Notes: generated by a model from the letters alone, not told the origin. DNA of 64,000 nt from an uncultured Acidobacteriota bacterium (GCA_963829355.1 CAWHHZ010000020.1:4278-68277); one strand, 5' to 3'; numbered from the stretch's first letter, positions 3,193 through 59,198 are shown. Made by a program: numbers and translations.

Positions 3193-3243
3193 GCCCAATG
3201 GTACAGGAGCGCCGGCAGAGTGCCAGCGCTCCCCACTGTGGCA

Positions 3244-14261: not shown

Positions 14262-14548
14262 GCATACATATTTACCCGGCTATCCATATGCCTCATTCCG
14301 GAGCTCGAGTGACGAGTGAGTCGGCTCTGGGGGCGTCCCGACAGACCGTAGAGAGTGTTTGGAAGGTGATCGAAATTCGTCGGGCGCGAGTAGGCACGCT
14401 CCGACAAGGAAACCACCGCCGAGCGCAGACCTGACCCCAGCCTCTGCGACAAAAGACGTGACCCCCCAAGACACAACACTCCATTAAACCACCGATCGAA
14501 CAGCCCGAAGAGATGTGACTCAAGGCTCATCGTTGAAAAGTAATCTCA

Positions 14549-17500: not shown

Positions 17501-20500
17501 GTTGACCGCGGTGACATCGGATTCGATGTCGACGTTGTCGTCGATCGCGACTTCCAGCGACCCGCCCGCGGATGTGACTGTCAGAGCGACGGCAATCGAG
17601 TCCAGGGTATTGTCGTGGATCGAGCTCGTCATCGTTCCGGCCGTTGTTGTCACCGCGACCGCATTCGCATTGCTCTCGATGTCGAAGCCCGCGAGCTCGA
17701 CGCCAGTCAAGTCCGTGATCGTGAACCCGTTCGACGCCCCGCCCTGAACAAGCGGCTTGACGTTCGCCACGCTGTCGAAGAGCGTCTCCGGTCCCGACCC
17801 GAGGTCGACGACCAGATCGACTCCCTCTCCGAGGATCGTCTGATTCGCTTTGGCCGTGTAGCCTCCCACATAAGGATCGACACTCGAGTTGCCCGCGAAG
17901 ACGTAGATCACGTCACCCGACAGCGCGGCATCCTCGGCGTCGTCTGCAAGGGCGTCATCGGGTCCGTCCTCGTCGACGAGGCTCGTGAACGGATCCGACG
18001 AGGTGCCGATTCCGGTGTCGTCAGCGCCGCCGTTGTTGGAGTTGTCGACGAACCAGACGCACGTCGACCCGACATTCAATGTCACCGTCGCCGTGTCCTG
18101 TCCGCCCTCGGCGTCCTCGATCGTGTAGGTGAAGCTGTCCGCCACGCCTCGGTCTCCACTCTCGGGCGTATAGATGAACGAGCCGTCAGCATAGAGTGTC
18201 ACCGCTCCACCCTGGTTGGTCGTCACGGTGAACTCGGGGCCGGTCGTGTCGTTCGTCAGGCCGCTCGCCCCGATGAGCGTGACCGCGGTTCCTTCCACCG
18301 GATCCGAGTCACCGACGAGCACGTTGTCCGAGATCGTCCGGGAAACCGAGCCCGAGGCTGTCGCGGTCTGGCCCGCACTCGTCTCGACGACGATCTCGAT
18401 GTTGCAGGTTGCCGAGATCGTCTCGTCGTCCGCCACCGGAGCATCGTTCACCGGATTGACCGTGATCGTCACCGTCGCCAGGTTCGAGTCGACCGAACCA
18501 TCGTTTGCACGGTAGGTGAAGCTGTCCGAGCCGTTGAAGTTCGCATTGGGCGTGTAGCTGAACGACCCGTCCGCGTTGAGCGTCAACGAGCCGTTACTCG
18601 TCGTCGTGTCCAGAACCACCGTCAGAGCCTCGACATCGATATCGGTGTCGTTTGCGAGCACACCGGGCGCGGACACGATCAGCGCGTTGTCCTCATCGGT
18701 CATGTAGGCGTCATCGATCGCTACCGGCGCGTCGTTCACGCCACTGACCGTCACCGTCACGGTCGCCGTGTCGACCCCGCCGTTCCCGTCGCCGATCGTG
18801 TAGGTGAACGTGTCGGCGACCATCTCGGTGTCGTCGAGTGCCTGGAGCGCCGCCGCGCCCGTCGGGTCGTAGCTGAATGAGCCGTCCGCGTTGACGTTGA
18901 CCGCGGCGCCCAGCGCGCTCGTCGCGTCGAACCCCGTCACCGTCAAAGGATCGCTATCGGGGTCCGTGTCGTTGGCCAGGACGCCGGTCGCCGGGATGTT
19001 GAGTGCGGTGTCCGAGTCCGTCGCGTCTGCGTCGTCAACCGCGGCCGGATCGTCATTGAGCGCGTTCACCGTGATCGTCACCGTCACCACGTTCGAGTCC
19101 AGTGTGCCGTCGTTCGCGTGATACGTGAACGAGTCCGCCCCGTTGAAGTTCAGGTCCGGCGTGTACGTGAACGAACCGTCCGCGGCCAGGACCAGCGTCC
19201 CGTCGGAGACGTCCGTGTCGAGCACTGCCGTCAGTGCGTCGCTGTCCGGGTCCGTGTCGTTGTCGAGCACGCCTGGTGCGGCCACGATCAGAGCCGTGTC
19301 CTCCGGCGTTGCGTACCCATCCAACACCGCCACCGGCGTCTCGTTGACGTCGGTCACGTCGACCGTGATCGTCGCCGTATCCGTCAGGTTCCCGTTCCCA
19401 TCATCGGTCACCTGAACCGTCAGGACGTATTGCGGGGTCGTCTCGTAATCGAGCTGCGTACCGTCGGCCACCGTGATCTGACCCGTCATCGCATCGATCG
19501 CGAACGCGCCTGAGCCGTTCCCGGCCGTGATCGCCCAGCTCAGCATGTCTCCGTCCACGTCGCTCGCCACGACTGTTCCCACGACGGTCGTGTTCGGACT
19601 GTTCTCCGGAACGCTCAGCGTCTGATCAGCCACGACCGGAGCCGTATTGTCGTTGACGACAGTGATCGTCACCGTCGCGATGTTCGAGCCGAGCTCACCG
19701 TCATCGACCGAGAAGGTGAACGAGTCGGGTCCGAAGTACCCCGGATCGGGCGTGTAGGTCAGATCCGGAGCCGTTCCGCTCAGCGCTCCGTTCGTCGGAG
19801 AGGTCTCGATCGTGTACGTCAACGGATCCCCGTCCGGGTCCGTTGCAGTCAGGGTGATCGCCACTGCTGTATCCGAAGTCGTCCCGACCGCCTGGTCGTC
19901 TGCGATCGGTGCTTCGTTCGCGAAGTTCACGATGTCGTAGCGGAGGAACATGATGTCAGACTCCACACCCGCGAACGCCGCTGCCAGATCTCCCGCTGGT
20001 GCGTCGCCTGTCGCATCCGTCCCGAGCTGTGGCTCACCGGTCCAGTCTCCCGTCATTCCGTCGAGCACGAAGCCGGCCGCGTACGCCACGGTCGCGCCGC
20101 CAAGCATCAGGACGATCACCATCAGCGTCCGCGTCTCCGGACGGTTGCGCATCACCACCAGTGCCGTGATCACCAGAAGAAGCCCGAGGAAGATCAGGCC
20201 CCACTCTCCGACTGTCGGGATATTCGCCGGAGCGACAGCCAGCACGATCAACATCGGGTTTCCGCCGCTCAGCAGCAGCGCGTCGAGATCACCACTCGCC
20301 GCCGAGCCAGTCTCGAAACCGACGTGGATCACGTTCCCGCTCGTCATTGCCGACAGCGGAAGATAGCTCTCGACGACGAACGATCCCCCGATTCCGTTGC
20401 CGATCCCCACTGGCCATGGCGGAGGATAAGGCGAGGTGATCGCGACCGGCGGACCAAACGTGTCAGTTCCCGGGTCGATACAGCTCCGTGTCTCCACTCC

Positions 20501-20725
20501 AGTGACCGTCGGCAGACCACCCGTCGCGTCCACCGTCGTCGTGTGGATCATCTCCACACCCGCGAATGCACCGTCCACGGTCATCACGCTGCAACCGGTT
20601 GCAACGTCATTATCCAGGTCGAGCAGCGCCCGGATCTCGGTCGTCGCCGCCGAGGCGGCGTTCGTAAAGACGAGGAGAACGATCAGCGTGACGGAAAGGC
20701 GCGCGAAGCGGTGGCCGTGAGGCAT
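14549..20725 (-). CDS. Giant surface protein with cadherin/VCBS-like repeats followed by parallel beta-helix repeats
   Basis: The ATG at 20725 follows AGGAGA and a signal peptide. Repeated NDAPVA..DD...TDEDTAL...LANDTDPDSD...FTYTxxDG units, then a long G/T/S/N-rich beta-helix-type region. Confidence 0.85.
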   Translation of the reverse strand: MPHGHRFARLSVTLIVLLVFTNAASAATTEIRALLDLDNDVATGCSVMTVDGAFAGVEMIHTTTVDATGGLPTVTGVETRSCIDPGTDTFGPPVAITSPYPPPWPVGIGNGIGGSFVVESYLPLSAMTSGNVIHVGFETGSAASGDLDALLLSGGNPMLIVLAVAPANIPTVGEWGLIFLGLLLVITALVVMRNRPETRTLMVIVLMLGGATVAYAAGFVLDGMTGDWTGEPQLGTDATGDAPAGDLAAAFAGVESDIMFLRYDIVNFANEAPIADDQAVGTTSDTAVAITLTATDPDGDPLTYTIETSPTNGALSGTAPDLTYTPDPGYFGPDSFTFSVDDGELGSNIATVTITVVNDNTAPVVADQTLSVPENSPNTTVVGTVVASDVDGDMLSWAITAGNGSGAFAIDAMTGQITVADGTQLDYETTPQYVLTVQVTDDGNGNLTDTATITVDVTDVNETPVAVLDGYATPEDTALIVAAPGVLDNDTDPDSDALTAVLDTDVSDGTLVLAADGSFTYTPDLNFNGADSFTYHANDGTLDSNVVTVTITVNALNDDPAAVDDADATDSDTALNIPATGVLANDTDPDSDPLTVTGFDATSALGAAVNVNADGSFSYDPTGAAALQALDDTEMVADTFTYTIGDGNGGVDTATVTVTVSGVNDAPVAIDDAYMTDEDNALIVSAPGVLANDTDIDVEALTVVLDTTTSNGSLTLNADGSFSYTPNANFNGSDSFTYRANDGSVDSNLATVTITVNPVNDAPVADDETISATCNIEIVVETSAGQTATASGSVSRTISDNVLVGDSDPVEGTAVTLIGASGLTNDTTGPEFTVTTNQGGAVTLYADGSFIYTPESGDRGVADSFTYTIEDAEGGQDTATVTLNVGSTCVWFVDNSNNGGADDTGIGTSSDPFTSLVDEDGPDDALADDAEDAALSGDVIYVFAGNSSVDPYVGGYTAKANQTILGEGVDLVVDLGSGPETLFDSVANVKPLVQGGASNGFTITDLTGVELAGFDIESNANAVAVTTTAGTMTSSIHDNTLDSIAVALTVTSAGGSLEVAIDDNVDIESDVTAVNLVAAGGTLYVTSFCGNTVSGNTVGDGIVISGAIFDADPSDADFTGDEVACGTGTMIGSAANRVGGSGLKLLNVTGDLSLGALDVWAGTAGGLDEPALEVGGNGLFNAAAGTGFQMTTNAGTIDTIDGPAIDVNDLDLQSFALTTVTSQNSGTTGLDLLNTSGSFQVSGTTTIGSTAGDGVSVTDSSVGVTFTGQLAIATTGGEGVSLDDLTGAFSAADATSSISGTTGDAFNSLSSEGNITYAGTITNTLGNSVDIRNHGGAAASTILFSGFIDDDGSGILLDSNGQGAGATMNFTGGLDLDTGTGTAFNATNGGTVNVTSGGVSTTADTTTGTVVFIGSTTIGASGVTFDSTSSTGGANGILLTNVPSGDFTSLGGSLANQTNRGVDISGGNGDVRVDASISTTSTGRSVEVTTHTGGTVDFNGFIDDNGFGIRLENNVGSILRFDGGMDIDTSAASGTEEGFQATGGGTVHVTGSNDVDTSLATGVAVNIAGGTTIGSDDVTFRNVSANGSANGIVLNGTGSTGAFEVTGTGTTDGTGGTIQSTTGDAVSVNNVRGGFTLRNMVLGDGTATLGQPKDATNNIGGDGIDLVSVDDVVFTNMRIARTNNHGIDGTDVTNFAISNSEIYNAGNDNGDSGISFEGVGFNNLDGTATVSNTTVDAAVEFGMRVQNSSGTLALTITGSRFSGTANTGSLMFGEDGLQIEVLGTAQTTASIGGSSTFLNLESDGIMGTTSGNSGAILNITIDGNTFTGFDNGAPNMRSDNAIELNATGGTSLANGPRLRYTINGNQMNSSSNSAILIGANDFTQVDGRITGNTITGSKFGFGIEAPLAADDNSVTRVLVTGNTISNHNQQGAFFNTNNSADLDVTFNSNNVATQPGDTTAFENVLFQTTSGSLCVAAASNTIALGGADAFGGGVNADALGMIRTGGTAQLERGSANLGDPASTVLLTNNPAAASVFAAGTITTVANSTCVTPIATPTP

Positions 20726-20919
20726 TAGCAGTCTCCTGGTCGATGAGTGAACCGTAGGGGGAGACACGAGTCTATAACAGGATTCGCCTGTCCATCCTTT
20801 CGACAGGTGTCCTGATAGTGGATATGAACAGGAGTGCCTGGAAAGACTAAGTGTTTGTTTGCAGGCAGTTTGTACGTTGGCTCGAATCTGGCGTTTTACT
20901 CTTCGCAGGGAGAACGATC

Positions 20920-22238: not shown

Positions 22239-23276
22239 TCACAGCGTGATCCGGCGTATCCTCACGCCTGCGGAGTCAGACTGAACGATCGTGAAGTCGA
22301 TGATACCGATCGTCTTCCCCTCTGCCGACTCGGCGCGCACTCGCCATCTGCCGGGGGCGGCATTGGCTTTTGAAGAATATCCTCGATACCCGTCGGCCCG
22401 GCCACTTCGAATCGTGAAGGGAATCACGTCCGAGGTGACCCATTTGCCGGTGACTTCATCTCGTTTCTGCCAACGGTGCCGGACCGTGGTCTCGAGTCCA
22501 CGCGGAATGAAGATCGATGAGAAGCAGAAGACCGGCTCCGAGCCCCGCCGGTGGAACACGGGTGAAGAGCGAAGCCAGAACCGTCGGTGACGGGACGGCT
22601 CGATCTGCGCGGTGTAGTGGCCGGCGCGTTTCTCGACATGATGCGCGATGAAAAGCTCCTTTTTCACCAGCGGGACGGGAGGAAGGATGTTGGCGACGTG
22701 GAGAAGCAGGAGTAGTGCACCGACCGCGAAGGATGGAAGGACCGATGCCTTCTTCTTCGACAGAAGCCACAGGACGAGTGTCGCGCTGAGCGCGACGCCG
22801 GTGCTCACATAGAACCACGTCGACTGCATGCTGCGGAAAGCATGGGGGAGTGCGAAGTTGAAGAACATGATTCCGCAGGTCGTAAACAGCGTCCAGGAGA
22901 GCGTGAGTCGGGAGTAACGGTGTTCGACAAACTCGTTCCCGATCAGAAGGCCGGTCAGCCCCAGCACGAGTATGAACCCACCAATCTCACTGGAACTGAG
23001 AAAATAGAAGATTACGAGAGCACTGAAGATCCCTCCGAAGAAAAACTGGAGCGCGACGTTCTGATAGTCCTTCCATCGGTGCTCGATCTCACGACCGATA
23101 ACGAAGAGGATGGTCGCGGCGATCAGGTAGTAAATCGTAAGGACGACGAAATCGATCGGGACGATCCGGCGGCCCAGGGTGAAGGCGTCGAAGACGAATC
23201 CACCGAAAAACGATATTGCGGGAAGTGTCCGCGCAAGACGGGGATACCGCTGGCTGAGTTCGTCAAGGTTCAGCAT
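22239..23276 (-). CDS. Polytopic membrane protein with a DUF2914-like C-terminal domain, paralog 1
   Basis: About 7 TM helices, then a soluble C-terminus (RSGRADGYRGYSSKANAAPGRWRVRAES). Near-identical paralog at 57359..58396. Confidence 0.6.
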   Translation of the reverse strand: MLNLDELSQRYPRLARTLPAISFFGGFVFDAFTLGRRIVPIDFVVLTIYYLIAATILFVIGREIEHRWKDYQNVALQFFFGGIFSALVIFYFLSSSEIGGFILVLGLTGLLIGNEFVEHRYSRLTLSWTLFTTCGIMFFNFALPHAFRSMQSTWFYVSTGVALSATLVLWLLSKKKASVLPSFAVGALLLLLHVANILPPVPLVKKELFIAHHVEKRAGHYTAQIEPSRHRRFWLRSSPVFHRRGSEPVFCFSSIFIPRGLETTVRHRWQKRDEVTGKWVTSDVIPFTIRSGRADGYRGYSSKANAAPGRWRVRAESAEGKTIGIIDFTIVQSDSAGVRIRRITL

Positions 23277-23430
23277 TCAAGCCCCCGATTGTAACCGGGG
23301 AGCCGGCCCGAGCCACGGACGTTCGAACCAGCACACCGGAGGAGTGCCGGATTTCCCTTTTCCGTCGGGAACCATCACTTCACGGTGGAAACGCGTCAAT
23401 GTCTCGAGATGGTCGTGAGCAAGCAAGAAC

Positions 23431-23535
23431 AGCACACCGGAGGTGTGCCAGAAGGTAGAGTGGTAGCGCCGGAGGTGCAACCACCGGTTCAGGTCCCCCG
23501 CCCGACCACGCAGCACCCCGGCAGGGGTGCCGGAC
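23431..23535 (+). repeat. H element (three GC-rich hairpins), copy 1
   Basis: CACACCggaGGTGTG; GTGGTaGCGCCggaGGTGCaACCAC; GCACCCCggcaGGGGTGC. A hairpin-1-only fragment lies at 23325-23350. Confidence 0.75.
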
Positions 23536-23564
23536 CTCGGACGCCACCACAAAACCGCTTGCGG

Positions 23565-32223: not shown

Positions 32224-32472
32224 TCATTTTACGGCGTCCCGTACCTTCGATATGCGATTTCGTCGAATTCGGGCGAACTCGTCCCTGCCCGAGTCCGCTC
32301 CAACCGCGGCGATCGCCCACATCACGTCCGGGTCGTCCGGCTCGCGCTCGAGTTCGTACCAGTGAAGCTCGAGCGACCTGGTGTCGCCGTCGTACGCTTC
32401 GGTTGCCACTGGAAGAAGCCGTTCATCGTGACTCTCCTGTGCGACACCTTGTGCCGGAAACCGACAGCTCAT
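32224..32472 (-). CDS. 76-aa-family small acidic protein, divergent copy B
   Basis: SHDERLLPVATEAYDGDTRSLELHWYELEREPDDPDVMWAIAAVGADS matches 35219..35449, then diverges. The only in-frame ATG lies inside the 20-nt repeat. Confidence 0.35.
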   Translation of the reverse strand: MSCRFPAQGVAQESHDERLLPVATEAYDGDTRSLELHWYELEREPDDPDVMWAIAAVGADSGRDEFARIRRNRISKVRDAVK

Positions 32473-32534
32473 GTCGAATCGCGACACCGCTTTGCGAAGT
32501 AAAGTTAAGATTCTGGCTCCGACCCTAACTTTAC
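32442..32534 (+). repeat. Composite repeat: about-20-nt tandem units plus T-hairpin
   Basis: Units CGACACCTTGTGCCGGAAAC / CGACAGCTCATGTCGAATCG / CGACACCGCTTTGCGAAGTA. T-hairpin GTAAAGTTAAG-ATTCTGGCTCCGAC-CCTAACTTTAC at 32499-32534. Confidence 0.8.
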
Positions 32535-33923
32535 GCGCGGTGGGGCTGCGACGCATGTCATCCACTCCAGCACGTCACGCTTGTACGCCGAATCATACTG
32601 AGTCGTCAGCGTGTAGCCGTTGACGGCCTGCACGACACTCATCAGCTCGATTCTGGGATCGATCCGGACCTCCCCCGCGCGGGGAACCTCCGCCGTTCTC
32701 GCGTCCGGCGATCTCACGAAATCCGTCATGAGCGACAGCGCGTGGCGGGAGACCCACTCGCGCTCCGGGTCCACCAGCATGTGCCCCATCCCGGGAAGGA
32801 CGACCGCCGAGATCCGTCCGTCGTTTCCGGGCCGATCCTCGAGCTCCGCCAGGCGACCTACGCTCGTCGCTACCGGCACGTTGTCCTGCTCGTCTTCTGC
32901 ACCATAGAGGACGAGTGTCGGAACGGAGTCACTGCCCCACGATCGAATCGGATCGTACTCGCCAACGCGCGCCCACCATCGCCAGCGCCAGTCATCCGGC
33001 TCCGAGGGCATGACCTCAGCGAACGGCGCCGCCGGACCCTCGAGCGCCGCTTGCCTCGCCTTCTCGTAGTCGATCCAGGAGAGCCGGCCAAGCGCGTGTT
33101 CCTGAATCAATTTCTGCAGGGCCATCGCGCTCGAAATCGCCTCTTGCGAAAATCCCTTCCCCTCCATGGTGTTCCGAATCTCGAAACCGATCTGATCGAA
33201 TACCGGGACCGCGGCCGACGAGATGCTCACCACGAATCCACCACGACCCGAGAATCGAGCAGCCAGTGGTGCGATCCAGCCACCCTGACTCAGACCCACC
33301 CAGCCGGTGTTCCCGGGATCGAGACCGGCCGTCTCCACCAGGAGATCGAAACCGGCAACGGCGTCGCGAGCCAGGGCATCGAACCCGACCTCCTTCCAAT
33401 CCCCTTCCGAGTCGCCCGAGCCCCGTTTGTCAGGGAAAAGAACGTCGACTCCCGCCACCGCCAGCGCATGCGCGAACGTGTAGGCCCACACGTTGTCGCG
33501 GTCGCTCGATCCGGACCCGTGGATCATCACTGCTCCCCGACCGGCGGGGCGTGAGGGCCGAAGCAGGATGCCCGCCAGGCGAACCCCGTCTGCGCTCCGA
33601 AACGTCACGCTCTCTACCTGATACGGTGCGTCCGGATCACGTGTCCATCGAGCACCATCCGGACTTACGAGCACCGCCTCTCCCTCAGCCGGCGCAATCC
33701 AGCGGAACGCGTTTTCCTCGTCGCCGATCTGGATGCTGCCGAAGGACGCATGATCAAAATCCAGACGTCGATGACTACCTCCAGGGCCCGGCGAGACGAG
33801 AACAGATGAGCCATCAGGCGTGCGGTACCAGCCGATCGGTGACGTCGCGCCTTCACCGTTTGCGGAGATCGTGATCGACGACAGCAGGGAGAAACAAAGG
33901 ATCTGGAGCAGAAATCGCTTCAC
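32505..33923 (-). CDS. Secreted alpha/beta hydrolase, with its 3' end running into the T-hairpin
   Basis: Signal peptide. HGSGSSDRDN and GLSQGGW (GxSxG). The last residues, APPRVKLGSEPES, are encoded by the repeat, so the gene looks truncated. Confidence 0.7.
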   Translation of the reverse strand: MKRFLLQILCFSLLSSITISANGEGATSPIGWYRTPDGSSVLVSPGPGGSHRRLDFDHASFGSIQIGDEENAFRWIAPAEGEAVLVSPDGARWTRDPDAPYQVESVTFRSADGVRLAGILLRPSRPAGRGAVMIHGSGSSDRDNVWAYTFAHALAVAGVDVLFPDKRGSGDSEGDWKEVGFDALARDAVAGFDLLVETAGLDPGNTGWVGLSQGGWIAPLAARFSGRGGFVVSISSAAVPVFDQIGFEIRNTMEGKGFSQEAISSAMALQKLIQEHALGRLSWIDYEKARQAALEGPAAPFAEVMPSEPDDWRWRWWARVGEYDPIRSWGSDSVPTLVLYGAEDEQDNVPVATSVGRLAELEDRPGNDGRISAVVLPGMGHMLVDPEREWVSRHALSLMTDFVRSPDARTAEVPRAGEVRIDPRIELMSVVQAVNGYTLTTQYDSAYKRDVLEWMTCVAAPPRVKLGSEPES

Positions 33924-35114: not shown

Positions 35115-35221
35115 ATTGATCCCGACGACTGTGGAAAGGGGAGCGGTACAGCCGAAGTGCGAGACAATCGCATCCAGAGCGCTACATTGCACTTTGGGTG
35201 TCCCCGGTTGGTGAGCACTCA
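35115..35221 (+). repeat. Z element, copy A (3' flank of the 76-aa gene)
   Basis: ATTGATCCCGACGAC...GTACAGCCGAAGTGCGAGACAATCGCATCCAGAGCGCTACATTGCACTTTGGGTGTCCCC. A near-identical copy lies at 36252-36356. Confidence 0.7.
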
Positions 35222-35449
35222 CCTCCGGTATCGCCGCAGCGCCTCGATGCTCTCGGCAGCTTCCTTCCGCGAACGGTACCCGTAGTCGATGATCGATACA
35301 GAGTCTGCTCCTACCGCGGCGATCGCCCACATCACGTCGGGGTCATTCGGTTCGCGCTCGGTGTCGTACCAATGAAGCTCGAGCGAGGTGGTGTCACCGT
35401 CGTACGCTTCGATCGCAATCGGCAGGAGCCGTTCGTCATGATCCGACAT
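35219..35449 (-). CDS. Small acidic protein (76 aa), unknown family, intact copy A
   Basis: MSDHDERLLPIAIEAYDGDTTSLELHWYDTEREPNDPDVMWAIAAVGADSVSIIDYGYRSRKEAAESIEALRRYRR. GAGG lies 13 nt upstream. Three further partial copies are present in the window. Confidence 0.55.
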   Translation of the reverse strand: MSDHDERLLPIAIEAYDGDTTSLELHWYDTEREPNDPDVMWAIAAVGADSVSIIDYGYRSRKEAAESIEALRRYRR

Positions 35450-35475
35450 CCCGCGATCGTACCTCGGCGACCTGC

Positions 35476-35757
35476 GGTTCTACTCCTCGTAGAATCCGAG
35501 ATCATCGTCAGGGTCTCGAACCAGCACACTGGAGGTGTGCCGGAAGGTAGCCGGTGGTAGCGCCGGAGGCGCAACCACCGGTGCAATGTCACCCACCCCA
35601 CCACGCAGCACCCCGGCAGGGGTGCCGGGACTCGCGGCCTGGGAAGACAGTTCATACCGCAGAGCGACACCTCATGCCGGAAACCGACAGCTCATGCCGA
35701 ATCGCGACGCGACTTTGCGAAGTAACGTTTGGATTCGAGGTCTGACCCCAAGTTTAC
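35476..35757 (+). repeat. Full composite repeat: Y fragment + H element + four 20-nt units + T-hairpin
   Basis: GGTTCTACtcctcGTAGAA; H at 35522-35627; 20-nt units at 35645-35720; T variant at 35722-35757. Confidence 0.8.
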
Positions 35758-36251: not shown

Positions 36252-36356
36252 TTTGATCCCGACGACCGGGGAACGGGAGCAGTACAGCCGAAGTGCGAAA
36301 CATCGCATCCAGAGCGCTACATTGCACTTTGAGTGTCCCCGGGTGGTGGGCACTCA
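36252..36356 (+). repeat. Z element, copy C
   Basis: Near-identical to 35115-35221. Confidence 0.7.
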
Positions 36357-36464
36357 CCTCCGGTGTCGCCGCAGCGCTTCGATGCTCTCGTCAGCTTCCT
36401 CTCGCGAACGATCCCCATAGTCGATGATCGACACCGAGTCCGCTCCAACCGCGGCGATCGCCCA
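36354..36464 (-). pseudogene. 3' fragment of the 76-aa gene family
   Basis: Encodes WAIAAVGADSVSIIDYGDRSREEADESIEALRRHRR only. It abuts the truncated TcmP-like gene. Confidence 0.65.
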
Positions 36465-36465
36465 G

Positions 36466-37085
36466 GGTTCGACCATTACATCTTCGTCGAGCAGCGGAAG
36501 GATCGTTGTCGGGAGCTGGAGGAGCTGAGAACGGAGTTCCCGGAGCAGGCGGCTGAGATCGAGATCAGACAGGGCGATGCGAATCAGCAGATTCAGGATC
36601 TTTGTGGCAAGAGCTGTCAGAGCCATCGTGCGGTGCTGTTCCTCGATCCTTATGGCACCCAGGTTCACTGGGAGACGATCGAGGCTGTCGCCAGAACGGA
36701 GGCGATCGACATGTGGCTTCTGTTTCCGCTCGGCATCGGCGTCAATCGAATGCTCCCGCCATCTGGAGACGTGCCTCAGACGTGGAAGGAGACGCTGACT
36801 CGGCTCCTCGGTACTTCAGACTGGTACGATGAGTTCTATCGTGTGGAGCATGACGATACGTTGTTCGGGCCGGAGGAGCGCGTGGTGAAGGCGAGCGTCG
36901 ATGTCATCGGGCGTTACTTCAACGATCGCCTGAAGCAGATCTTTCCTGGTGTGGCGGAGCAGCCGGGCGTGCTGCGCAACTCCGCGAATTGCCCGCTCTA
37001 TCTCTTCTGCTTCGCGGCAGGGAACAAATACGGCGCGCCGATCGCACTGAACATCGCGAATCACCTTCTGAAGGAGCTGCGCTGA
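36466..37085 (+). pseudogene. tcmP: Three-Cys-motif partner protein (TcmP-like), 5'-truncated
   Basis: ...AVLFLDPYGTQVHWETIEAVARTEAIDMWLLFPLGIGVNRML... The N-terminal part of the track ORF is the antisense of the 76-aa gene fragment and Z element. Confidence 0.55.
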
Positions 37086-37828
37086 TGGCTGCCGGGACAG
37101 GAATCGAGTGGACCGAGGCGACGTGGAATCCCGTGACGGGTTGCACGAAGATCAGCCCGGGGTGTAAGCACTGCTATGCCGAGCGGATGGCGGAGCGTCT
37201 GCGGCTCATGGGGCAGGCGAACTATCGAAACGGCTTTCGGCTCACCTTGCAGCCCCACATGCTCGAGCTTCCGCTGAGGTGGAAGAAGCCTCGGACCATC
37301 TTCGTCAACTCGATGAGCGATCTCTTTCACGACGGCGTGCCTCTCGACTACATCCGGCAGGTCTTCGACGTGATGAAGCGCGCATCGTGGCACCGCTTCC
37401 AGGTGCTGACGAAACGAGCGAAGAGGCTGGCAGAGCTCGACCCTCACCTGGAGTGGCCGGAGAACGTCTGGATGGGCGTCAGCGTCGAGAGCTCTTCATA
37501 CCGCCATCGCATCGACGCCCTCCGCCAGACCGATGCCCGCATCAAGTTTCTCTCCCTCGAGCCGCTCCTCGGCCCGCTCCCCGACTTGAACCTCGACGGC
37601 ATCAACTGGGTGATCGTCGGCGGCGAATCCGGACCCGGCGCCCGTCCAATGGAGCCGGACTGGGCTCTCGACGTGAAGCGTCAATGCCACGATGCGTTGG
37701 TTCCTTTCTTCTTCAAGCAGTGGGGCGGGACAAACAAGAAAAAGGCGGGGAGAGTGCTGGAGGGGCGGACGTGGAATGAGATGCCGGCGGGCATGTCAGG
37801 CAACCCAGCATTCGCTCAGTCTTCATAG
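37085..37828 (+). CDS. DUF5131 / phage Gp37-Gp68 family protein
   Basis: [31 protein letters not shown] three-Cys N-terminus. The ATG overlaps the upstream stop (TGATG). Confidence 0.8.
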
Positions 37829-38523: not shown

Positions 38524-38610
38524 GGTTCTACTGACCGTAGAAGTTTTGGCGGAATCGGCCTCGGATTCTACATCCCGTAGATTTGACCGCCGACCAAAGA
38601 CCTGACCCCA
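38524..38610 (+). repeat. Y element
   Basis: GGTTCTACtgaccGTAGAA...GGAATCGG...TTCTACatcccGTAGA-TTTGACCGCCGACCAAAGACCTGACCCCA. Confidence 0.8.
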
Positions 38611-38649
38611 AGGCTCCGCAAAGCTCCGCAAAGCTCCGAAAGCTCCGAG
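38611..38649 (+). repeat. 10-nt tandem repeat (GCTCCGCAAA-type)
   Basis: aggctccgca aagctccgca aagctccga aagctccga. Homologous tract with one more unit at 48281-48320. Confidence 0.75.
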
Positions 38650-38877: not shown

Positions 38878-38890
38878 ATGGTCTGGCCCC

Positions 38891-38978
38891 GGTTCTACTG
38901 ATCGTAGAAATCTGAGCGGAATCGGCTTCAGATTCTACATCTCGTAGATTCGACCGCCGACCAAAGACCTGGCCCCAG
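38891..38978 (+). repeat. Y element (tandem with the previous copy)
   Basis: GGTTCTACtgatcGTAGAAATCTGAGCGGAATCGGCTTCAGATTCTACATCTCGTAGATTCGACCGCCGACCAAAGACCTGGCCCCAG. Confidence 0.85.
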
Positions 38979-39235
38979 AGGTCTGGCCCCAGAGGTCTCT
39001 GCTACAGCCACACAATTGCGAGAACGAGAATCGCGATGTCGGGCTCTGTCGGCAGGCGAGTTCACCGCGAGCACTCAAAAGTGTGATGGCTTGCCCTGAT
39101 ATTGTGTCAGGAGAATGATCCCCACCAGAGATCTGACCTTCTGAGGCTTGAGGGCCGGAGGAGTGACGCGCGACGGTTATTGGCGTGTTCCGCGGTTGCC
39201 ATCAATCTCGAACGGGCCTTCTGTACAATCGGAGC

Positions 39236-43503: not shown

Positions 43504-43759
43504 AGCACACCGGAGGTGTGCCGGAAGGTAGCGGTGGTAGCGCCGGAGGCGCAACCACCGGTGCATGTCGCCCACCCCAACACGCAGCACCCCGGCAGGG
43601 GTGCCGGACGTCGCCCTGGGAAGACAGTTCATGCCGCAGAGCACACTCAGCCGGAAACCGACAGCTCATGCCGAATCGCGACACGACTTTGCGAAGTAAA
43701 GTTACGATTCTGGCTCCGGCCCTAACTTTAGGCGATTCTGGCTCCGGCCCTAACTTTAC
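43504..43759 (+). repeat. Full composite repeat: H element + 20-nt units + T-hairpin with duplicated loop and arm
   Basis: H at 43504-43606; units at 43621-43697; GTAAAGTTACG-ATTCTGGCTCCGGC-CCTAACTTTA, then GGCG-ATTCTGGCTCCGGC-CCTAACTTTAC. Confidence 0.8.
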
Positions 43760-45722: not shown

Positions 45723-45897
45723 CCTCGAAGTGGTCGGAGTCGACGGAGGAGTTCTTGCCGTCTTTCAATGACGATTACGTCGCGGTTCAGCTGGAGGCGA
45801 TGGATTGGAATCTCGTCGGAGTGACGAATTTGGCTCAGTGCTCTCGCCACGGCTCAGAATAGCAATGATGTCAACCTGAAGATTCTCGAAGGCATCT

Positions 45898-45932
45898 GAA
45901 AACTTATATTTTGAGCTTTGAGGTTAAGTTCT
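45898..45932 (+). repeat. T'' hairpin variant
   Basis: GAAAACTTATA-TTTTGAGCTTTGAG-GTTAAGTTCT. Confidence 0.7.
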
Positions 45933-45973
45933 ACGATCGCAATCGGCAGAAGCCGTTCGTCATGATCCGACAT
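45933..45973 (-). pseudogene. 5' fragment (first ~13 codons) of the 76-aa gene family
   Basis: Encodes MSDHDERLLPIAI and is cut exactly at the T'' edge. The upstream leader is conserved with copy A. Confidence 0.6.
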
Positions 45974-45999
45974 CCCTCGATCGTACCTCGGCTACCTGC

Positions 46000-46272
46000 G
46001 GTTCTACTTCTCGTAGAATCCGAGATAATCGTCAGGGGTCTCGAACCAGCACACCGGAGGTGTGCCGGAAGGTAGCCGGTGGTAGCGCCGGAGGCGCAAC
46101 CACCGGTTCAAGACGACCCTCCCCAACACGCAGCACCCCGGTAGGGGTGCCGGGACTCGCGGCCTGGGAAGACAGTTCATGCCGCAGAGCGACACCTCAC
46201 GCCGAATCGCGACACGACTTTGCGAAGTAAAGTTTAGATTCGAGGTGTGACCCCAAGTTAAAGTTTTCCTTC
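46000..46272 (+). repeat. Full composite repeat: Y fragment + H + three 20-nt units + chimeric T-hairpin
   Basis: H at 46047-46153 (hairpin 3 loop GGTA instead of GGCA). One 20-nt unit fewer than the 35.6-kb copy. The 3' arm reads GTTAAAGTTTTCC, like T'. Confidence 0.8.
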
Positions 46273-46385
46273 TCGTAGAGTTCACCGCAGACCAAAGACC
46301 TCGCACCAGGGGTCTTCGGCTCGAAGACCCACAGCGCGCGAGGAATTCCTGAAATCACATTAACCTTTCGTGTTAATGTATTCTG

Positions 46386-47867: not shown

Positions 47868-47982
47868 ATGACAGCTCATGCCGCAGGGCGACAACTCATG
47901 CCGGCAACCGACAGCTCAGGCCGAATCACGACACCGCTTTGCGAAGTAAAGTGAAAATTCTGGCTCTGACCCTAACATTAAC
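47868..47982 (+). repeat. Composite repeat: 20-nt units plus T-hairpin
   Basis: ATGACAGCTCATGCCGCAGG / GCGACAACTCATGCCGGCAAC / CGACAGCTCAGGCCGAATCA / CGACACCGCTTTGCGAAGTA, then GTAAAGTGAAA-ATTCTGGCTCTGAC-CCTAACATTAAC. Confidence 0.8.
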
Positions 47983-48198
47983 CGCGCGGCTCACGATCAT
48001 CCATCCGGATCAGATCGTACCTCGGTCGCCCAATGATCCACTCCTCGTAGACCCAGATGGACGACTCAACTCATAAACCGCATGACCATGTGCGGTCGTG
48101 TGCCTCAGTACAGTTGGCACACGTGATTGTACCTCGGGAGGTGCTTTCCACCCCGGAGAGGAACAGCGAGCCGCTGGGGCGCAGCCCGACTTTGCAGA

Positions 48199-48235
48199 GT
48201 AAAGTTACTTTTCTGGCTCTGACCCCAATTTAATC
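48199..48235 (+). repeat. T-hairpin (degenerate arms)
   Basis: GTAAAGTTAC-TTTTCTGGCTCTGAC-CCCAATTTAATC. Confidence 0.65.
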
Positions 48236-48239
48236 TTCC

Positions 48240-48281
48240 CACATCCCGTAGATTTGACCGCCGACCAAAGACCTGACCCCA
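48240..48281 (+). repeat. Partial Y element (3' half)
   Basis: CACATCCCGTAGATTTGACCGCCGACCAAAGACCTGACCCCA. Confidence 0.7.
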
Positions 48282-48320
48282 AAGCTCCGCAAAGCTCCGC
48301 AAAGCTCCGCAAAGCTCCGA
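48281..48320 (+). repeat. 10-nt tandem repeat, 4 units
   Basis: AAAGCTCCGC x3 plus AAAGCTCCGA. Confidence 0.8.
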
Positions 48321-48339: not shown

Positions 48340-48594
48340 TTACTGACGATCTTCCGAAAAGAGAACGGTCTCGATCCGCTCGACCCGTGATTCGAGACTG
48401 GTGAGGCGCTGGTCCAGTGCAGTGTAAGAGAGTTTGATCATCGAACGAGTTTCCCCGAACTCGCCCCGAGTCTCCGCGTGATGTCGGTCGACCTTCGCGT
48501 CGAGCAGCGAGATGGCTTCGAGGATCCGATCGAACTTCTGATCGTTCGCTTCCGCGAGAACGTCGAAATGTCGTTTCAGTTCCCCGTCATCCAT
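48340..48594 (-). CDS. Hypothetical coiled-coil protein (84 aa)
   Basis: MDDGELKRHFDVLAEANDQKFDRILEAISLLDAKVDRHHAETRGEF...LTSLESRVERIETVLF. A 3' fragment copy lies at 38668-38723. Confidence 0.45.
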   Translation of the reverse strand: MDDGELKRHFDVLAEANDQKFDRILEAISLLDAKVDRHHAETRGEFGETRSMIKLSYTALDQRLTSLESRVERIETVLFSEDRQ

Positions 48595-48837
48595 TCGGTT
48601 TCCTCCGCCGGATCGTCGAGAGGCTGGATCCAGAGATCAGTTTACCATCCCATCGTCAGGTGCAGTCCCCTGCGTCGGATGGTGGATTCCACCGCAACAG
48701 ACGCCGCCAGAGTCGATCTACTCCGATGAGGTATGAGAGGAGGCCCTCCAGGAGAACGACTGAATCGCTTTTCGACGGCGGCCCTCCGACCGACCTCCAC
48801 AACACAGAAGATCCGCCGGGGGTTCTTGCTCGACAGT

Positions 48838-51499: not shown

Positions 51500-51795
51500 A
51501 GACAGAGCCCTCGACGACCAACGGATCGTCCGACCGACGCTCGAGCACGTGATCGATCTGGTGATGGAGGAGTTCGCGGAAACGCTCGAGACTCTCCGTC
51601 GGAGGAACCCGTCGCCCCGGCCGAAAAGCCTTTGCGCTTCTCGCCCACGAGGAATGCGGACTGACGCATCGGATGATCGGGGAGTATCTGGGCATCTCTC
51701 CCTCAGCCGTCTCCCAGATGCTCCGGGCGGCGACCGAGCTCGAGCGGAAGGACCGGCAATTCGGCGAAGCAATTCACCGAATCCGCGCCTCGAAA
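51500..51795 (+). pseudogene. Frameshifted C-terminal remnant of an HTH (DnaA_C-like) gene that ends in the T' hairpin
   Basis: LEHVIDLVMEEFAETLETLRR, then in the +1 frame RRPGRKAFALLAHEECGLTHRMIGEYLGISPSAVSQMLRAATELERKDRQFGEAIHRIRASKT-stop. The stop lies within the T' 5' arm. Confidence 0.55.
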
Positions 51796-51828
51796 ACTTA
51801 ACTTTCTAGCTCCGACGTTAAGTTTTCC
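51790..51828 (+). repeat. T' hairpin
   Basis: TCGAAAACTTAAC-TTTCTAGCTCCGAC-GTTAAGTTTTCC. Confidence 0.8.
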
Positions 51829-52076: not shown

Positions 52077-52150
52077 GGGCGGTGCTGTCCAGTACCTCGA
52101 TCACGAGGGCACGGCTACCGCAATGCGGTTCTTAGAGGTACGATTGACCT

Positions 52151-52402
52151 ATGGCCAGCGTGCAGGTTGAGTTACCGGAGAGCGTTCTCGCGGCATTACG
52201 GAAGGCCCCTCATGAGGTTGGCCCGGAGATGCGCATTGCCGCAGCAATTCATTGGTATCAGCAGAGCTTGATCTCTATGGAGAGGGCGGCAGAAGTCGCG
52301 GGGATGAACCGAACCGAGTTTCTGGCGGAGCTGTCCCGTCGGCGGGTCGATGTGTTCGTGGTAGATGATGAGGACCTCGCGCGAGAGCTCGAGAATGCCT
52401 GA
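52151..52402 (+). CDS. UPF0175 family antitoxin, copy 2 (identical to copy 1)
   Basis: The 83-aa translation is identical to 44830..45081. Confidence 0.7.
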   Translation: MASVQVELPESVLAALRKAPHEVGPEMRIAAAIHWYQQSLISMERAAEVAGMNRTEFLAELSRRRVDVFVVDDEDLARELENA

Positions 52403-52880
52403 TCGTCTCGTCGTCAACGCTTCCCCATTGATCTTTCTCGGCAACGGCAATCGGCTCGAGCTGCTGCGAGATTTCACTGAAGGACCTGTGATCGTACCCG
52501 GGGTCGTCCTGGACGAGATCCTGTCAGGCGGGCATCACGACCGGGCGGCCGAGGCGGTGAGAAAGTCGAGCTGGCTTCAGGCAGGCACTCCCGACTCAAT
52601 GCCGCCAGAAGTGCTGGAGTGGGATCTCGGTGCGGGTGAGTCCGCCGTCATCGCGATCTCACTGGAGACTGAAGGTGCGAGGCCAGTGATCGATGATCTT
52701 GCTGGCCGCCGGTGTGCGAGAGCGTTCGATCTGGACGTGATCGGAACTCTGGGTCTTGTGATCGCAGCGCATCGTCGCGGAACGGTCGACGACCCTCGGA
52801 GAGTTCTGCTCGAACTGAGGGATGCCGGAATGTGGCTCTCCGATGAGGTATTGGAGAAGGCCCTCAAGAAGAACGACTAA
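52395..52880 (+). CDS. DUF3368 (PIN-like) putative toxin, copy 2 (identical to copy 1)
   Basis: The translation is identical to 45074..45559. Confidence 0.7.
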   Translation: MPDRLVVNASPLIFLGNGNRLELLRDFTEGPVIVPGVVLDEILSGGHHDRAAEAVRKSSWLQAGTPDSMPPEVLEWDLGAGESAVIAISLETEGARPVIDDLAGRRCARAFDLDVIGTLGLVIAAHRRGTVDDPRRVLLELRDAGMWLSDEVLEKALKKND

Positions 52881-52956
52881 TCGCTTTTCGACAGGTCGCT
52901 CTCCTATCGTCCTCCCCACCACGGAAGATCCGGCGGAGGTTTTTGCGCTCGACAGC

Positions 52957-53070
52957 GGTTCTACTGACCGTAGAACTTTGAACGGAATCGGCTTCGGATT
53001 CTACCTCTCGTAGAATTGACCGCCGACCAAAGACGTGGCCCCCAGCCTCGAAGACGTGGCCCCCAGCCTC
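52957..53070 (+). repeat. Y element with a duplicated tail
   Basis: GGTTCTACtgaccGTAGAA...TTCTACctctcGTAGAATTGACCGCCGACCAAAGACGTGGCCCCCAGCCTCG, then a repeat of AAGACGTGGCCCCCAGCCTCG. Confidence 0.8.
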
Positions 53071-53253: not shown

Positions 53254-53592
53254 ATGGCTGGGATCGTGGCCGAACGGCTCGATAGCATGAGGAAAAAGAC
53301 TGGCATCACCGGCCGGGATGTGGCGCAGCTTCTGGATACGACGCCTGAGACGGTTTCCAGATGGAGCTCCGGAAAGGTCGAGCCGCAGAGAGATCGGCTG
53401 CACAGACTGCTGGCTCTCGAATTCATTCTCGATGAGCTGCTCGAGTTCTACAGCCGCGACGATGCCAGACTATGGTTGTTCACGCCTCACCGTCTGCTCA
53501 GCGGTCGGACGCCGGCGGAAAAGATCTCCGAGGGGCAGGATGATGAAGTACGAACCATCATCGCGCAGCTACGCGACGGAGCGTACGTCTGA
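53254..53592 (+). CDS. Xre-HTH / DUF2384 antitoxin (ParS/MbcA-like)
   Basis: HTH (GITGRDVAQLLDTTPETVSRWSSGK) plus a DUF2384-like C-terminus (WLFTPHRLLSGRTPAEKI). AGGAGG lies upstream. Confidence 0.75.
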   Translation: MAGIVAERLDSMRKKTGITGRDVAQLLDTTPETVSRWSSGKVEPQRDRLHRLLALEFILDELLEFYSRDDARLWLFTPHRLLSGRTPAEKISEGQDDEVRTIIAQLRDGAYV

Positions 53593-53594
53593 GC

Positions 53595-54104
53595 GTGATC
53601 TTCTCTCCCGATCGCAAGATTCTGGAGGTCGTCGGTGCCATTGAACCGGCACCTCTCGAGGCGTCGGTGTTCCGCTGGTGCTTTTCCCACGTCGATCCGC
53701 TACGGCCGAATCGAAGCGGAGCGCGATGGAACCCACCAGACGTCGAAGCCCTTTATGCGAGCCTCGAGCGGGACGTCTGTCTGGCGGAGATGAACCATCT
53801 TCTGGATCTTCACTCCATACCGATCACCAAGAGCAGGGTTTTGTGCACCATAGAGGTCAGCCTCCAGTCGGTCCTCGAGCTGACTGAAGACACTCTGGCC
53901 GAACTGGGTTTATCTGCAGACGTGCTGAGCAGTGTCGATCTCAGCAGATGTCAACAGGTTGGCGGCGCAGTGCAGTGGCTCAATCATGACGGCTTGCTCG
54001 TCCCGTCCGCACGCCACGAGCAAGGTCGGAACCTCGTGATCTTTCAGACAAATCACGATGAAGAGTCGATCGTCGAGCTCACCGACAAAGCTCCCCTCGA
54101 ATGA
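53595..54104 (+). CDS. RES domain toxin (ParT/MbcT-like)
   Basis: GARWNPP...ALYASLE...LLVPSARHE supplies the R/E/S positions. GTG start 3 nt after the antitoxin stop. Confidence 0.75.
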   Translation: MIFSPDRKILEVVGAIEPAPLEASVFRWCFSHVDPLRPNRSGARWNPPDVEALYASLERDVCLAEMNHLLDLHSIPITKSRVLCTIEVSLQSVLELTEDTLAELGLSADVLSSVDLSRCQQVGGAVQWLNHDGLLVPSARHEQGRNLVIFQTNHDEESIVELTDKAPLE

Positions 54105-54499: not shown

Positions 54500-54583
54500 G
54501 GTTCTACTCAGAGTAGAGTTCGCGCGGAATCGGCTTAAAATTCCACATCTCGTTCCCTTCTAAGACCTGACCCCAGAGGTCCC
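54500..54583 (+). repeat. Y element
   Basis: GGTTCTACtcagaGTAGAG...GGAATCGGCTT...CTAAGACCTGACCCCAGAGGTC. Contains the stop codon of the AbiEii-like gene. Confidence 0.7.
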
Positions 54584-58396: not shown

Positions 58397-58491
58397 TCAG
58401 GGCCCCGATTGTAACCGGGAAGCCGAGCCATCGTCCGGGAGCGTTCTGGCCCCAACTTAAAATCGTCCCGGAGCGGTAAGCGCTTTGTGAA

Positions 58492-58527
58492 GTAAAGTTT
58501 AGTTTGGAGGTCCGGCCCCAACTTAAC
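58492..58527 (+). repeat. T-hairpin
   Basis: GTAAAGTTTAG-TTTGGAGGTCCGGC-CCCAACTTAAC. A loop-plus-arm fragment (TTCTGGCCCCAACTTAAAA) lies at 58445-58464. Confidence 0.7.
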
Positions 58528-59120: not shown

Positions 59121-59198
59121 GCCGGTGGTGGCGCCGGAGGCGCAACCACCGGCTCAAGGCCCCCACCCGACCACGCAGCACCCCGGCAGGGGCGCCGG
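59121..59198 (+). repeat. Partial, decayed H element (hairpins 2 and 3 only)
   Basis: CCGGTGGTgGCGCCggaGGCGCaACCACCGG ... GCACCCCggcaGGGGCGC, with one stem mismatch. Partial Y tails follow near 59240-59290 and 59345-59385. Confidence 0.6.

Follow-up and report, generated by a model that had tools for sequence, protein, structure and literature searches.

Stacked hairpin repeat modules in an accessory island of an uncultured acidobacterium and their probable link to a Y1 transposase

TIRtrons consist of RAYT-like 'TIRYT' (TIR-associated tyrosine transposase) genes flanked by repeats that are sometimes partly self-complementary and often share the motif GGGGWSAS (PMC3733652), which is the TIR consensus (PMC3733652; PMC6006769). 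Some TIR repeats form moderately abundant families that occur as dimers or in clusters, and their hosts include Acidobacteria (PMC3733652, Di Nocera 2013); repeat families are reported for only part of the TIRYTs in the two surveys (PMC3733652, PMC6006769). Most TIRYTs belong to TnpA-Y1 subclass 2.1 (Quentin 2018, PMC6006769). The substrates of Y1 enzymes are single-stranded hairpins at the lagging-strand template, and this explains the orientation bias of IS200/IS605 elements (reviewed in PMC6006769). GTAG-tagged REP sequences are GC-rich palindromes of 20-40 nt with an unpaired GTAG at one end (PMC3733652).

We analyzed a 64,000-nt stretch of DNA from an uncultured Acidobacteriota bacterium (GCA_963829355.1, CAWHHZ010000020.1:4278-68277; hereafter the window), in which a composite element of about 240 nt had been predicted, made up of three GC hairpins, an array of 20-nt direct repeats and a terminal T-hairpin. 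Our best reading is that the composite is selfish repeat DNA of a known kind, new only as a lineage-specific member, and not a new RNA. We consider it moderately probable that its terminal hairpin is a repeat associated with a Y1 transposase (IS200 superfamily, TIRYT type) and that the whole is a lineage-specific cluster of PATE-, REP/BIME- or TIRtron-like character. This is an ordinary explanation for a striking-looking element, and it takes one candidate novel RNA off the list.

Modules of the composite and their setting

The three hairpins, the 20-nt units and all the copies listed in the original prediction were recovered, far above chance, by a 22-mer scan and by self-BLAST. The 22-mer of hairpin A2 has five sites with at most one mismatch (23466, 35560, 43540, 46085 and 59131), all on the + strand, where 0.00 were expected. 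Self-BLAST aligned 35523-35756 with 43504-43730 (89%), 35407-35754 with 45931-46259 (88%) and 23430-23539 with 35522-35634 (88%); the three full copies, at 35.5, 43.5 and 46.0 kb, are 84-89% identical to one another. We refer to copies below by their position in kb. The idea of a single ~240-nt unit fared less well. The composite is three separate hairpin repeat modules, A, B and C, stacked side by side, and each of them occurs without the others (Table 1).

Table 1. Coordinates of the repeat modules in the window.
Feature	Position	Strand	Remarks
H hairpin, TTCTAC-tcctc-GTAGAA	35478..35494	+	TTCTACtcctcGTAGAA; on the minus strand, within the shared 5'-UTR module TCTACGAGGAGTAGA-N10-CCGAGGTACGATC-ATG of the 76-aa gene 35219-35449(-)
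Hairpin A1 (module A)	35525..35539	+	CACACTggaGGTGTG
Hairpin A2 (module A)	35547..35581	+	GTAG + palindrome, CCGGTGGTaGCGCCggaGGCGCaACCACCGG
Spacer A2-A3	35582..35607	+	~10 variable nt, then conserved C-rich tract CCCnCCCnAnCACGCAGC
Hairpin A3 (module A)	35608..35625	+	GCACCCCggcaGGGGTGC
Module B	35646..35705	+	three 20-nt tandem units, GACAGCTCATGCCGAAnCGC
Module C	35706..35757	+	type I T-hairpin plus left flank C0; C0 GACGCGACTTTGCGAAG, arms GTAACGTTTGG / CCAAGTTTAC, loop ATTCGAGGTCTGACC
Second full A+B+C copy	43504..43759	+	directly 3' of the stop codon of a + strand kinase gene
Third full copy	46001..46300	+	H, A, 2 B units, C, then TTTTCC-ttctc-GTAGAG + P motif
Solo A1 + A-only copy	23326..23535	+	upstream of duplicated DUF2914 gene, outside main array
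Solo A1 copy	23332..23346	+	
Decayed A copy	59121..59198	+	A2 + A3 only; right end of array
B (2 units) + C, without A	32443..32535	+	
B (3 units) + C, without A	47870..47981	+	right edge adjoins 5' stub of a minus-strand gene
HH-P example	38886..38990	+	ends in GACCGCCGACCAAAGACCTGGCCCC (minus strand GGGGCCAGGTCT)
Type II T-hairpin	51783..51828	+	DUF5131 3' fragment directly to right
Type I T-hairpin	58483..58526	+	DUF4411 C-terminal fragment directly to right

Module A comprises the three GC hairpins and is present in five copies, with a further A1 standing alone at 23332. A1 is a direct repeat of A3 (consensus CAGCACMCCGG.AGGKGTGCCGG), and in the 35-kb copy it contains a T.G pair. A2 opens with four unpaired nucleotides, the GTAG tag (35547-35550), and continues as a 31-nt palindrome whose A bulges are symmetric (35551-35581). 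The 43-, 46- and 23-kb copies retain the tag, and the decayed 59-kb copy has lost it. Between A2 and A3, a C-rich spacer differing in every copy had been described, of which the variability applies to the first ~10 nt, while the C-rich part itself is conserved. A possible fourth hairpin in this spacer (GGTG..CACC, with apparent covariation) was rejected, as it competes with the base of A2 and is absent from the consensus fold.

Module B is represented by zero to three units per T-hairpin site: three at 35.6, 43.6 and 47.9 kb and two at 32.4 and 46.2 kb. At 34.96 and 57.16 kb about one unit is left, in decayed form, and at 48.19 and 58.48 kb there is no unit. TRF reports period-20 arrays at 35646-35708 (3.2 copies, 73% matches), 46177-46215 (2.0 copies) and 47870-47923 (2.7 copies). 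The 20 nt that follow the B units, C0, form the left flank of the T-hairpin and resemble a diverged further unit (pattern GACAnnnC.TGC.GAA); if C0 is counted, the unit numbers first reported, four at 35.6 kb and three at 46.2 kb, agree with ours. From this resemblance the B units look like tandem duplications of the C0 flank.

Of the T-hairpin, module C, there are 16 or more copies. Their stems fall into three variants, with nine copies of type I, four of type II (AAAACTTAAC-tttctagctccgac-GTTAAGTTTT) and three of type III (AAAACTTATA-ttttgagctttgag-GTTAAGTT), the loop of types II and III being nearly the same as that of type I. Module C stands alone at 34982, 48190, 57182 and 58483. A fourth family, HH-P, consists of two TTCTAC-N5-GTAGAA hairpins 40 nt apart followed by GACCGCCGACCAAAGACCTGRCCCC, and contributes eight full and three partial copies to the array. 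All of the at least 32 copies, whatever their family, lie on the + strand, against chance expectations of 0-3 copies. They fall between 32.4 and 59.4 kb, the exceptions being a small group at 23.3-23.8 kb and, at 14.4 kb, two P-like motifs. The A-less B+C copies, the solo C copies, two additional stem variants and the uniform orientation are additions to the original prediction.

The 32.4-59.4 kb region (~27 kb) is an accessory island of toxin-antitoxin (TA)/defence genes and gene fragments. It encodes a TetR regulator, a hydrolase, a TcmP and DUF5131 pair, a kinase-FGE fusion, a DUF433 and PIN-like pair, an HTH-M78 protein, a DUF1828 protein, a RES-Xre pair and AbiEi/AbiEii, together with many small ORFs on both strands. 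The duplicated DUF2914 gene is also listed with the repeat-rich region, and an MmeI-type restriction-modification gene comes after it. The B+C copy at 32.4 kb cuts into this gene content on both sides: at its left edge a paralogue of the 76-aa gene has lost its start, and the right part of the copy overlaps the 3' end of the hydrolase ORF (32505-33923, minus strand). The host is, by its sequence affinities, a Thermoanaerobaculia-like acidobacterium. The names attached to homologues of the DUF2914 gene in the database are Thermoanaerobaculia or Acidobacteriota, and an Acido-Lenti-1 RNA at 2.5 kb is the sole Rfam match at the gathering threshold in the whole window.

No integrase, transposase, TnpB or IscB was found among the ORFs of the 64-kb window that were scanned with Pfam (~6.6 kb of the source contig lies outside it), and tblastn and Pfam found no Y1 gene or fragment there, in agreement with the earlier statement that neither tnpA nor tnpB is present.

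A tRNA T-arm-like sequence, GGGTTCGAGTCC at 59218, lies downstream of the decayed copy, and CGGACGCC..CCA follows both the 23- and the 59-kb copies. These sequences gave rise to the idea of a tmRNA or tRNA 3' end duplicated by serial island integration, which we rejected: ARAGORN detected neither a tRNA nor a tmRNA, Rfam had no tmRNA match, and the tail is missing in the 35-, 43- and 46-kb copies.

The T-hairpin, its right edge and a Y1 transposase

The 11-bp stem of the T-hairpin was examined across 19 hairpins, 16 from the window and three from relatives. Of its cells 73.7% are paired, compared with 65.2% in shuffles, and none of 500 shuffles reached the observed value. Pair 26:51 is GC in nine copies and CG in six, and pair 31:46 is GC in seven and CG in three. 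The loop TTCTRGCTCCGAC is conserved while the stem covaries between variants. Such covariation is compatible both with a hairpin formed in single-stranded nucleic acid and with a symmetric site in a duplex.

The right edge of the T-hairpin is, to judge from the junctions, a DNA breakpoint, since gene fragments start or end exactly there. The 46-kb copy provides one example. The homology between the 35- and 46-kb copies starts at 45931, inside the 76-aa gene and immediately past a type III T-hairpin (45889-45934); of that gene, only 59 nt of the 5' end are left, to the left of the 46-kb copy. The DUF5131 fragment that begins after 51828 is homologous to 37578-37786, and the DUF4411 fragment after 58526 corresponds to profile positions 101-159 of 159, the last third. 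Elsewhere, what follows the T-hairpin at 47937-47981 is a remnant of eight codons of a minus-strand gene together with the ribosome-binding module of that gene; at 48190-48240 the T-hairpin abuts half of an HH-P element, the right one, and the edge at position 1540 of the related metagenome contig L009 adjoins a truncated Y1 gene. The 3' half of the T-hairpin is also partially duplicated in tandem at 43705-43758 (in the 43-kb copy, with a 28-nt period), near 35020 and near 58440. These patterns are those expected from insertion or rearrangement at the foot of the hairpin and not from a gene-specific regulatory element. No shared motif was found to the right of 14 T-hairpins, the junctions being uncertain by a few nt, and neither a conserved target tetranucleotide nor a target duplication could be defined at them. 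Likewise, no pair of left and right ends bounding a conserved unit could be defined, though similar hairpins are co-oriented.

The close homologues of the 76-aa protein (80-85% identity) are confined to a set of JGI metagenomes. The contigs that bear them have T-hairpin loops and P-like motifs but neither module A nor module B. The 20-nt units, which had been likened to iterons, are thus not conserved outside the window in any relative examined, including L009, which is 97% identical to window positions 48408-48718 (312 nt). In L009 the module order is different and the DUF433/PIN-like pair has the opposite orientation relative to the repeats. These differences between two otherwise similar sequences indicate recent rearrangement at module edges.

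L009 also carries, between two T-hairpins, the 5' part of a gene reading GYGVSRQLRIDFPGAIHHITSRGNERRDIYRDDRDREKFL, whose database homologues are annotated as 'putative transposase'. One such homologue, P0127, scores 27.6 bits against PF01797 (Y1_Tnp; cutoff 23) and is 37% identical to the published TIRYT gbm 2474 over 65 aa that include the HUH motif (E 8e-15). P0127 reaches the HUH motif (NHYHLL), and the Y1 fragments recovered are N-terminal, of 52-69 aa. A second contig from the same sample, L019, contains another Y1 fragment. The Y1 fragment is preceded in either contig by a T-hairpin at a distance of 80-100 nt, on the opposite strand, and the intervening spacers are colinear and homologous (78% identity), so the position is conserved and does not reflect random insertion. 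The Y1 link thus comprises two truncated pseudogenes in related metagenome contigs, with the upstream repeat only. T-hairpins truncate many kinds of gene, and adjacency alone would be weak; it is the conserved position and spacer that count. Both T-hairpins around the Y1 fragment of L009 have the same orientation, and inverted T-hairpin copies are found only in contig L004, around a three-gene module that is not a transposase. A proposed homology between the B units and the T-hairpin/Y1 spacer of L009 and L019 was dropped, the alignment being unconvincing.

The sense strand of the transposase corresponds to the minus strand of the window, on which the T-hairpin and P modules carry GGGGTCAG-type motifs. 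Counting GGGGTCAG, GGGGCCAG and AGGGTCAG together, there are 13 occurrences on the minus strand and none on the + strand; GGGGTCAG itself is found at 35738, 38598, 48269, 54563 and 57085. The minus strand of module C at 35706-35757 reads GGGGTCAGACCT, which fits GGGGWSAS, and the motif is GGGGTCAC in the 46-kb copy and in L009. Only part of the T-hairpin copies fit GGGGWSAS exactly, the others reading GGGGCCAG, AGGGTCAG or AGGGTCGG. Similar motifs flank two distant Y1 loci (L017 and L018). Taken together, the stem covariation, the edge breakpoint, the fixed position upstream of a Y1 gene and the GGGGWSAS-type motif mark the T-hairpin as the presumptive active piece of the composite.

For modules A and B we saw no link to any transposase and found no similar sequence outside the window. 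The module A 22-mer has three matches in 185,579 species genomes, all without the complementary arm and hence attributable to chance, and none in JGI metagenome contigs or viral contigs. Module A is also absent upstream of DUF2914 homologues (59-75% identity), which lie in ordinary operons. A search with the T-hairpin pattern gave no match in metagenome contigs, and the composite had no BLAST match among plasmids and phages.

Origin of the composite and competing explanations

On the reading we favour, several families of hairpin repeats would have colonised the island at 32.4-59.4 kb, where A, B and C came to lie adjacent before being copied together, in a block, three times. A Y1 transposase of the TIRYT/IS200 superfamily, encoded elsewhere in the genome, may recognise the T-hairpin in single-stranded DNA, cut at its foot and move or rearrange the adjoining DNA. 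Strand-specific chemistry at the lagging-strand template would then give all copies their common orientation; the uniform orientation is consistent with this prediction, with a local GC skew that is noisy. Module B could have arisen when the 20 nt just inside the hairpin were duplicated in tandem, to a variable copy number and perhaps by slippage, and module A could be a separate small hairpin element in which A1 and A3 flank the GTAG-tagged, REP-like palindrome A2. The original prediction had compared the composite to a transposon end of IS200/IS605 or PATE type. That comparison gains from the edge breakpoint and from the Y1 link in two contigs, and what falls away is the single unit and the omega-RNA.

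It is unlikely, in our estimation, that the island is an integron-like array (CALIN) whose repeats are attC-type sites, with A, B and C as the expanded central (variable terminal) part of one site. The setting is suggestive, in that co-oriented imperfect palindromes interrupt, at intervals of 0.1-3 kb, a 27-kb stretch of small ORFs and TA/defence genes. The HH layout is attC-like as well (box, 5 nt, inverted box, centre, box, 5 nt, inverted box; ~59 nt with an extrahelical A); in the 46-kb copy the composite takes the place of the 22-nt centre of HH-P, with an H hairpin on one side and a second H half plus P on the other; and type II and III T-hairpins read ACTTAAC...GTTAAGT, which is compatible with the RYYYAAC/GTTRRRY consensus. 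However, the HH boxes are TTCTAC/GTAGAA and not the AAC/GTT that defines attC, and on this ground we rejected attC identity. Those T-hairpins that do carry AAC/GTT have only 14 nt between their arms, which is too short for L boxes. Moreover, the 64-kb window contains no tyrosine recombinase or integron integrase, gene orientation in the island is mixed, many junctions fall mid-gene, and the gene linked to the T-hairpin encodes a Y1 enzyme, not IntI. Since the DUF433/PIN-like pair, set against the repeats, faces one way in L009 and the other way in the window, the repeats are not fixed parts of cassettes.

We regard as quite unlikely the proposal that module A or the whole composite is a transcribed structured small RNA, either an omega-RNA-type guide scaffold or a GGA-loop protein sponge. 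It draws on three very stable hairpins, two of which have GGA triloops inside CCGGAGG, and on the sequence to the right of the T-hairpin, which differs in every copy and is in this respect guide-like. The fold z-scores of the composite are modest, at -2.5 for the + strand and -3.5 for the minus strand. A + strand RNA had been suggested from the GGCGC to GGTGC change in the copy at 23431, which we confirm, and two substitutions (35530 C>T and 23476 C>T) indeed remain paired only as G.U on the + strand. A third change, 59207 T>C, suits the minus strand instead, and module A has no compensatory pair change and no covariation (covariation term +0.52 over the real copies). Rfam gave no family over the element, either at the gathering threshold or at E<=5-10, beyond chance-level matches; a permissive search of 32-60 kb and two copies returned tfoR at 20 bits against a 70-bit cutoff and miRNA/snoRNA noise. 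There is no TnpB, IscB or Cas-like gene nearby, the modules occur separately, and A and B turned up in none of the relatives and collections that were searched. None of the three ideas (RNA, omega-RNA, iterons) has support.

Very unlikely in our view is a cassette-shuffling platform, integron-like but run by a Y1 HUH (TIRYT) enzyme in place of a tyrosine recombinase, in which T-hairpin and HH-P sites would delimit TA/defence cassettes. The cassettes would be cut out, reinserted and reordered, and the 20-nt units and GC hairpins would serve as accessory binding or insulating parts.

Highly improbable, finally, is a promoter/operator and leader of a minus-strand gene to the left, with the units as HTH operator iterons and the GC hairpins as a leader or attenuator, for although the modules of the 35- and 32-kb copies lie directly upstream (in gene sense) of the 76-aa gene family, the H hairpin with its CCGAGGTACGATC ribosome-binding module is common to several minus-strand genes and many HTH proteins are encoded in the island, two of the five B-bearing copies (at 43 and 47 kb) follow + strand stop codons with no minus-strand gene at their left, homologues of the 76-aa gene in L004 and L009 occur without A and B, the number of B units (0-3) is unrelated to the neighbouring gene, and the modules contain no promoter-like hexamers, sigma-70-like promoters or intrinsic terminators, counts equalling the shuffled expectation.

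Nothing, then, indicates a cellular function for the composite as an RNA or a regulator. If it is Y1-associated repeat DNA, as we favour, its interest lies in a repeat family tied to a TIRYT-type gene that combines fresh breakpoints inside genes, a strict strand bias and differing module order. These features would be indirect evidence that the TIRYT branch of Y1 enzymes is acting on chromosomal DNA now or did so recently, and that it is reshaping a TA/defence island of an uncultured Thermoanaerobaculia-like lineage. To our knowledge, no activity has been demonstrated for TIRYT-type Y1 enzymes. The close relatives in JGI 3300078498 and neighbouring samples could serve to reveal insertion and excision polymorphisms.

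Comparison with known repeat systems

Integron attC arrays and CALINs resemble the locus in having co-oriented structured repeats that delimit small accessory and TA genes, and the HH element mimics the R''-L''-L'-R' layout of attC. HH differs from attC in lacking its AAC/GTT core, and the locus differs in having no IntI, in its mid-gene junctions and in repeats that are not fixed to particular genes.

The locus can also be likened to the non-autonomous elements derived from IS200/IS605, namely PATEs and the cyanobacterial Nezha-type MITEs, in which hairpin ends replace inverted repeats, similar hairpins are direct, orientation bias is strong, the Y1 transposase acts in trans and there is no obvious target duplication. 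It differs in that no left and right end pair with a defined cleavage tetranucleotide could be delimited, the associated Y1 protein looks like a member of the RAYT/TIRYT branch and not an IS200 TnpA, and there is no TnpB or omega-RNA.

With the RAYT-mobilised REP/BIME sequences of E. coli and Pseudomonas the locus shares a mosaic of short palindromes and intervening motifs in variable unit number, and A2, with its unpaired 5' GTAG and GC-rich 31-nt palindrome, is built like a GTAG REP. BIMEs and REPINs are alternating or inverted and intergenic across the genome, whereas the repeats described here have uniform orientation and occupy one 27-kb island. A2 further departs from GTAG REPs in occurring as five direct copies in 64 kb, with no inverted partner and no RAYT in the window.

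Compared with TIRtrons, whose published repeats are inverted around the gene, all copies in the window are direct, the Y1 genes seen are truncated only, and the exact motif is found in some copies. The T-hairpins here also pile up in one island and cut genes. The Acidobacteria group of TIRYTs in PMC3733652 has a different N-terminus, and our fragment resembles the long gsu/gbm/aba 2776-type group. Against these differences stand the features that the T-hairpin and TIRtron repeats have in common: a position that is constant, in the two related contigs, upstream of a truncated Y1 HUH gene with an N-terminus like that of published TIRYTs, a GGGGWSAS-type motif, partial self-complementarity and moderately abundant copies in clusters.

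Duplicated segments and the right end of the array

In and next to the repeat-rich TA/defence island that we call the array lie several accessory genes, including an MmeI-type restriction-modification enzyme that extends to the end of the window. The window contains two copies of a DUF2914 gene, one within the array and the other 9 kb left of it; relatives of this gene (59-75% identity) lie in ordinary operons without any repeat. Another duplication, of 0.94 kb, encodes two small minus-strand ORFs and stops precisely at a P motif's right end; the P motif is the element that closes the HH-P repeats. The array's right end carries the decayed copy of the three-hairpin module A, and immediately 3' of this copy lies a sequence resembling a tRNA T-arm, GGGTTCGAGTCC, which may be the remnant of an old attachment site. 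No tRNA or tmRNA was called across the whole window.

Features of the window and of related contig L004
Feature	Position	Details
Acido-Lenti-1 RNA (RF01687)	2479-2529	46.6 bits
Imperfect palindrome	2299-2533	235 nt; encloses Acido-Lenti-1 RNA
P-like motifs GGGGTCAGGTCT / GGGGTCACGTCT	14427-14470	minus strand
Repeat protein	14549-20767(-)	2072 aa
DUF2914 gene	22239-23276, 57359-58396	92% nt identity
Duplicated 0.94-kb segment	44792-45730, 52113-53053	97.9% identity
CAAAGCTCCG tandem repeat	38609-38647, 48280-48319	10 nt, 4 copies
Other tandem repeats	38969, 53030	14 nt, 21 nt
5' module TCTACGAGGAGTAGA-N10-CCGAGGTACGATC-N4-10-ATG	35449-35494, 45975-46019, 47995-48051, 56872-56941	minus-strand genes
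Accessory genes	36333-37828, 53254-54104, 54560-56541, 60865-63966	TcmP + DUF5131 pair; RES-Xre TA pair; AbiEi/AbiEii with WYL domain; MmeI-type enzyme
GGGTTCGAGTCC	59218-59232	
L004, second Acido-Lenti-1-region copy	1867-1959 (L004)	77% identity
L004, T-type repeats	1688-1830, 3150-3195 (L004)	inverted orientation

Motifs adjoining genes

Far from the array, two P-like motifs are found 80-120 nt past the stop codon of a long repeat protein, and in the related metagenome contigs L004 and L009 a P-like motif is likewise positioned 3' of stop codons, on the strand of the gene. The CAAAGCTCCG tandem repeats immediately follow P motifs, and different short tandem repeats follow other P copies. Unrelated minus-strand genes of the window have a 5' module in common, and a block related to it, CTCCGAGGT, lies between the T-hairpin (an AT-rich hairpin) and the gene fragment for Y1, an HUH transposase, in L009 and a further related contig, L019.

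Mobile-element features of related loci

The Y1 fragment has five homologues in the databases (P0126-P0130, from loci L017-L019), all of them likewise shortened, to 52-69 aa. In the distant locus L018 the Y1 gene is cut by a further copy of the repeat that lies upstream of it. The second copy of the Acido-Lenti-1 region, in L004, is flanked by a T-type repeat and an 83-aa gene. This gene, a Phd-like antitoxin and a 139-aa ORF make up a 1.4-kb inserted module, with a histidine kinase gene on one side and a MarR gene on the other. With inverted T-type repeats on both sides of the module, the L004 arrangement looks like a small transposon.
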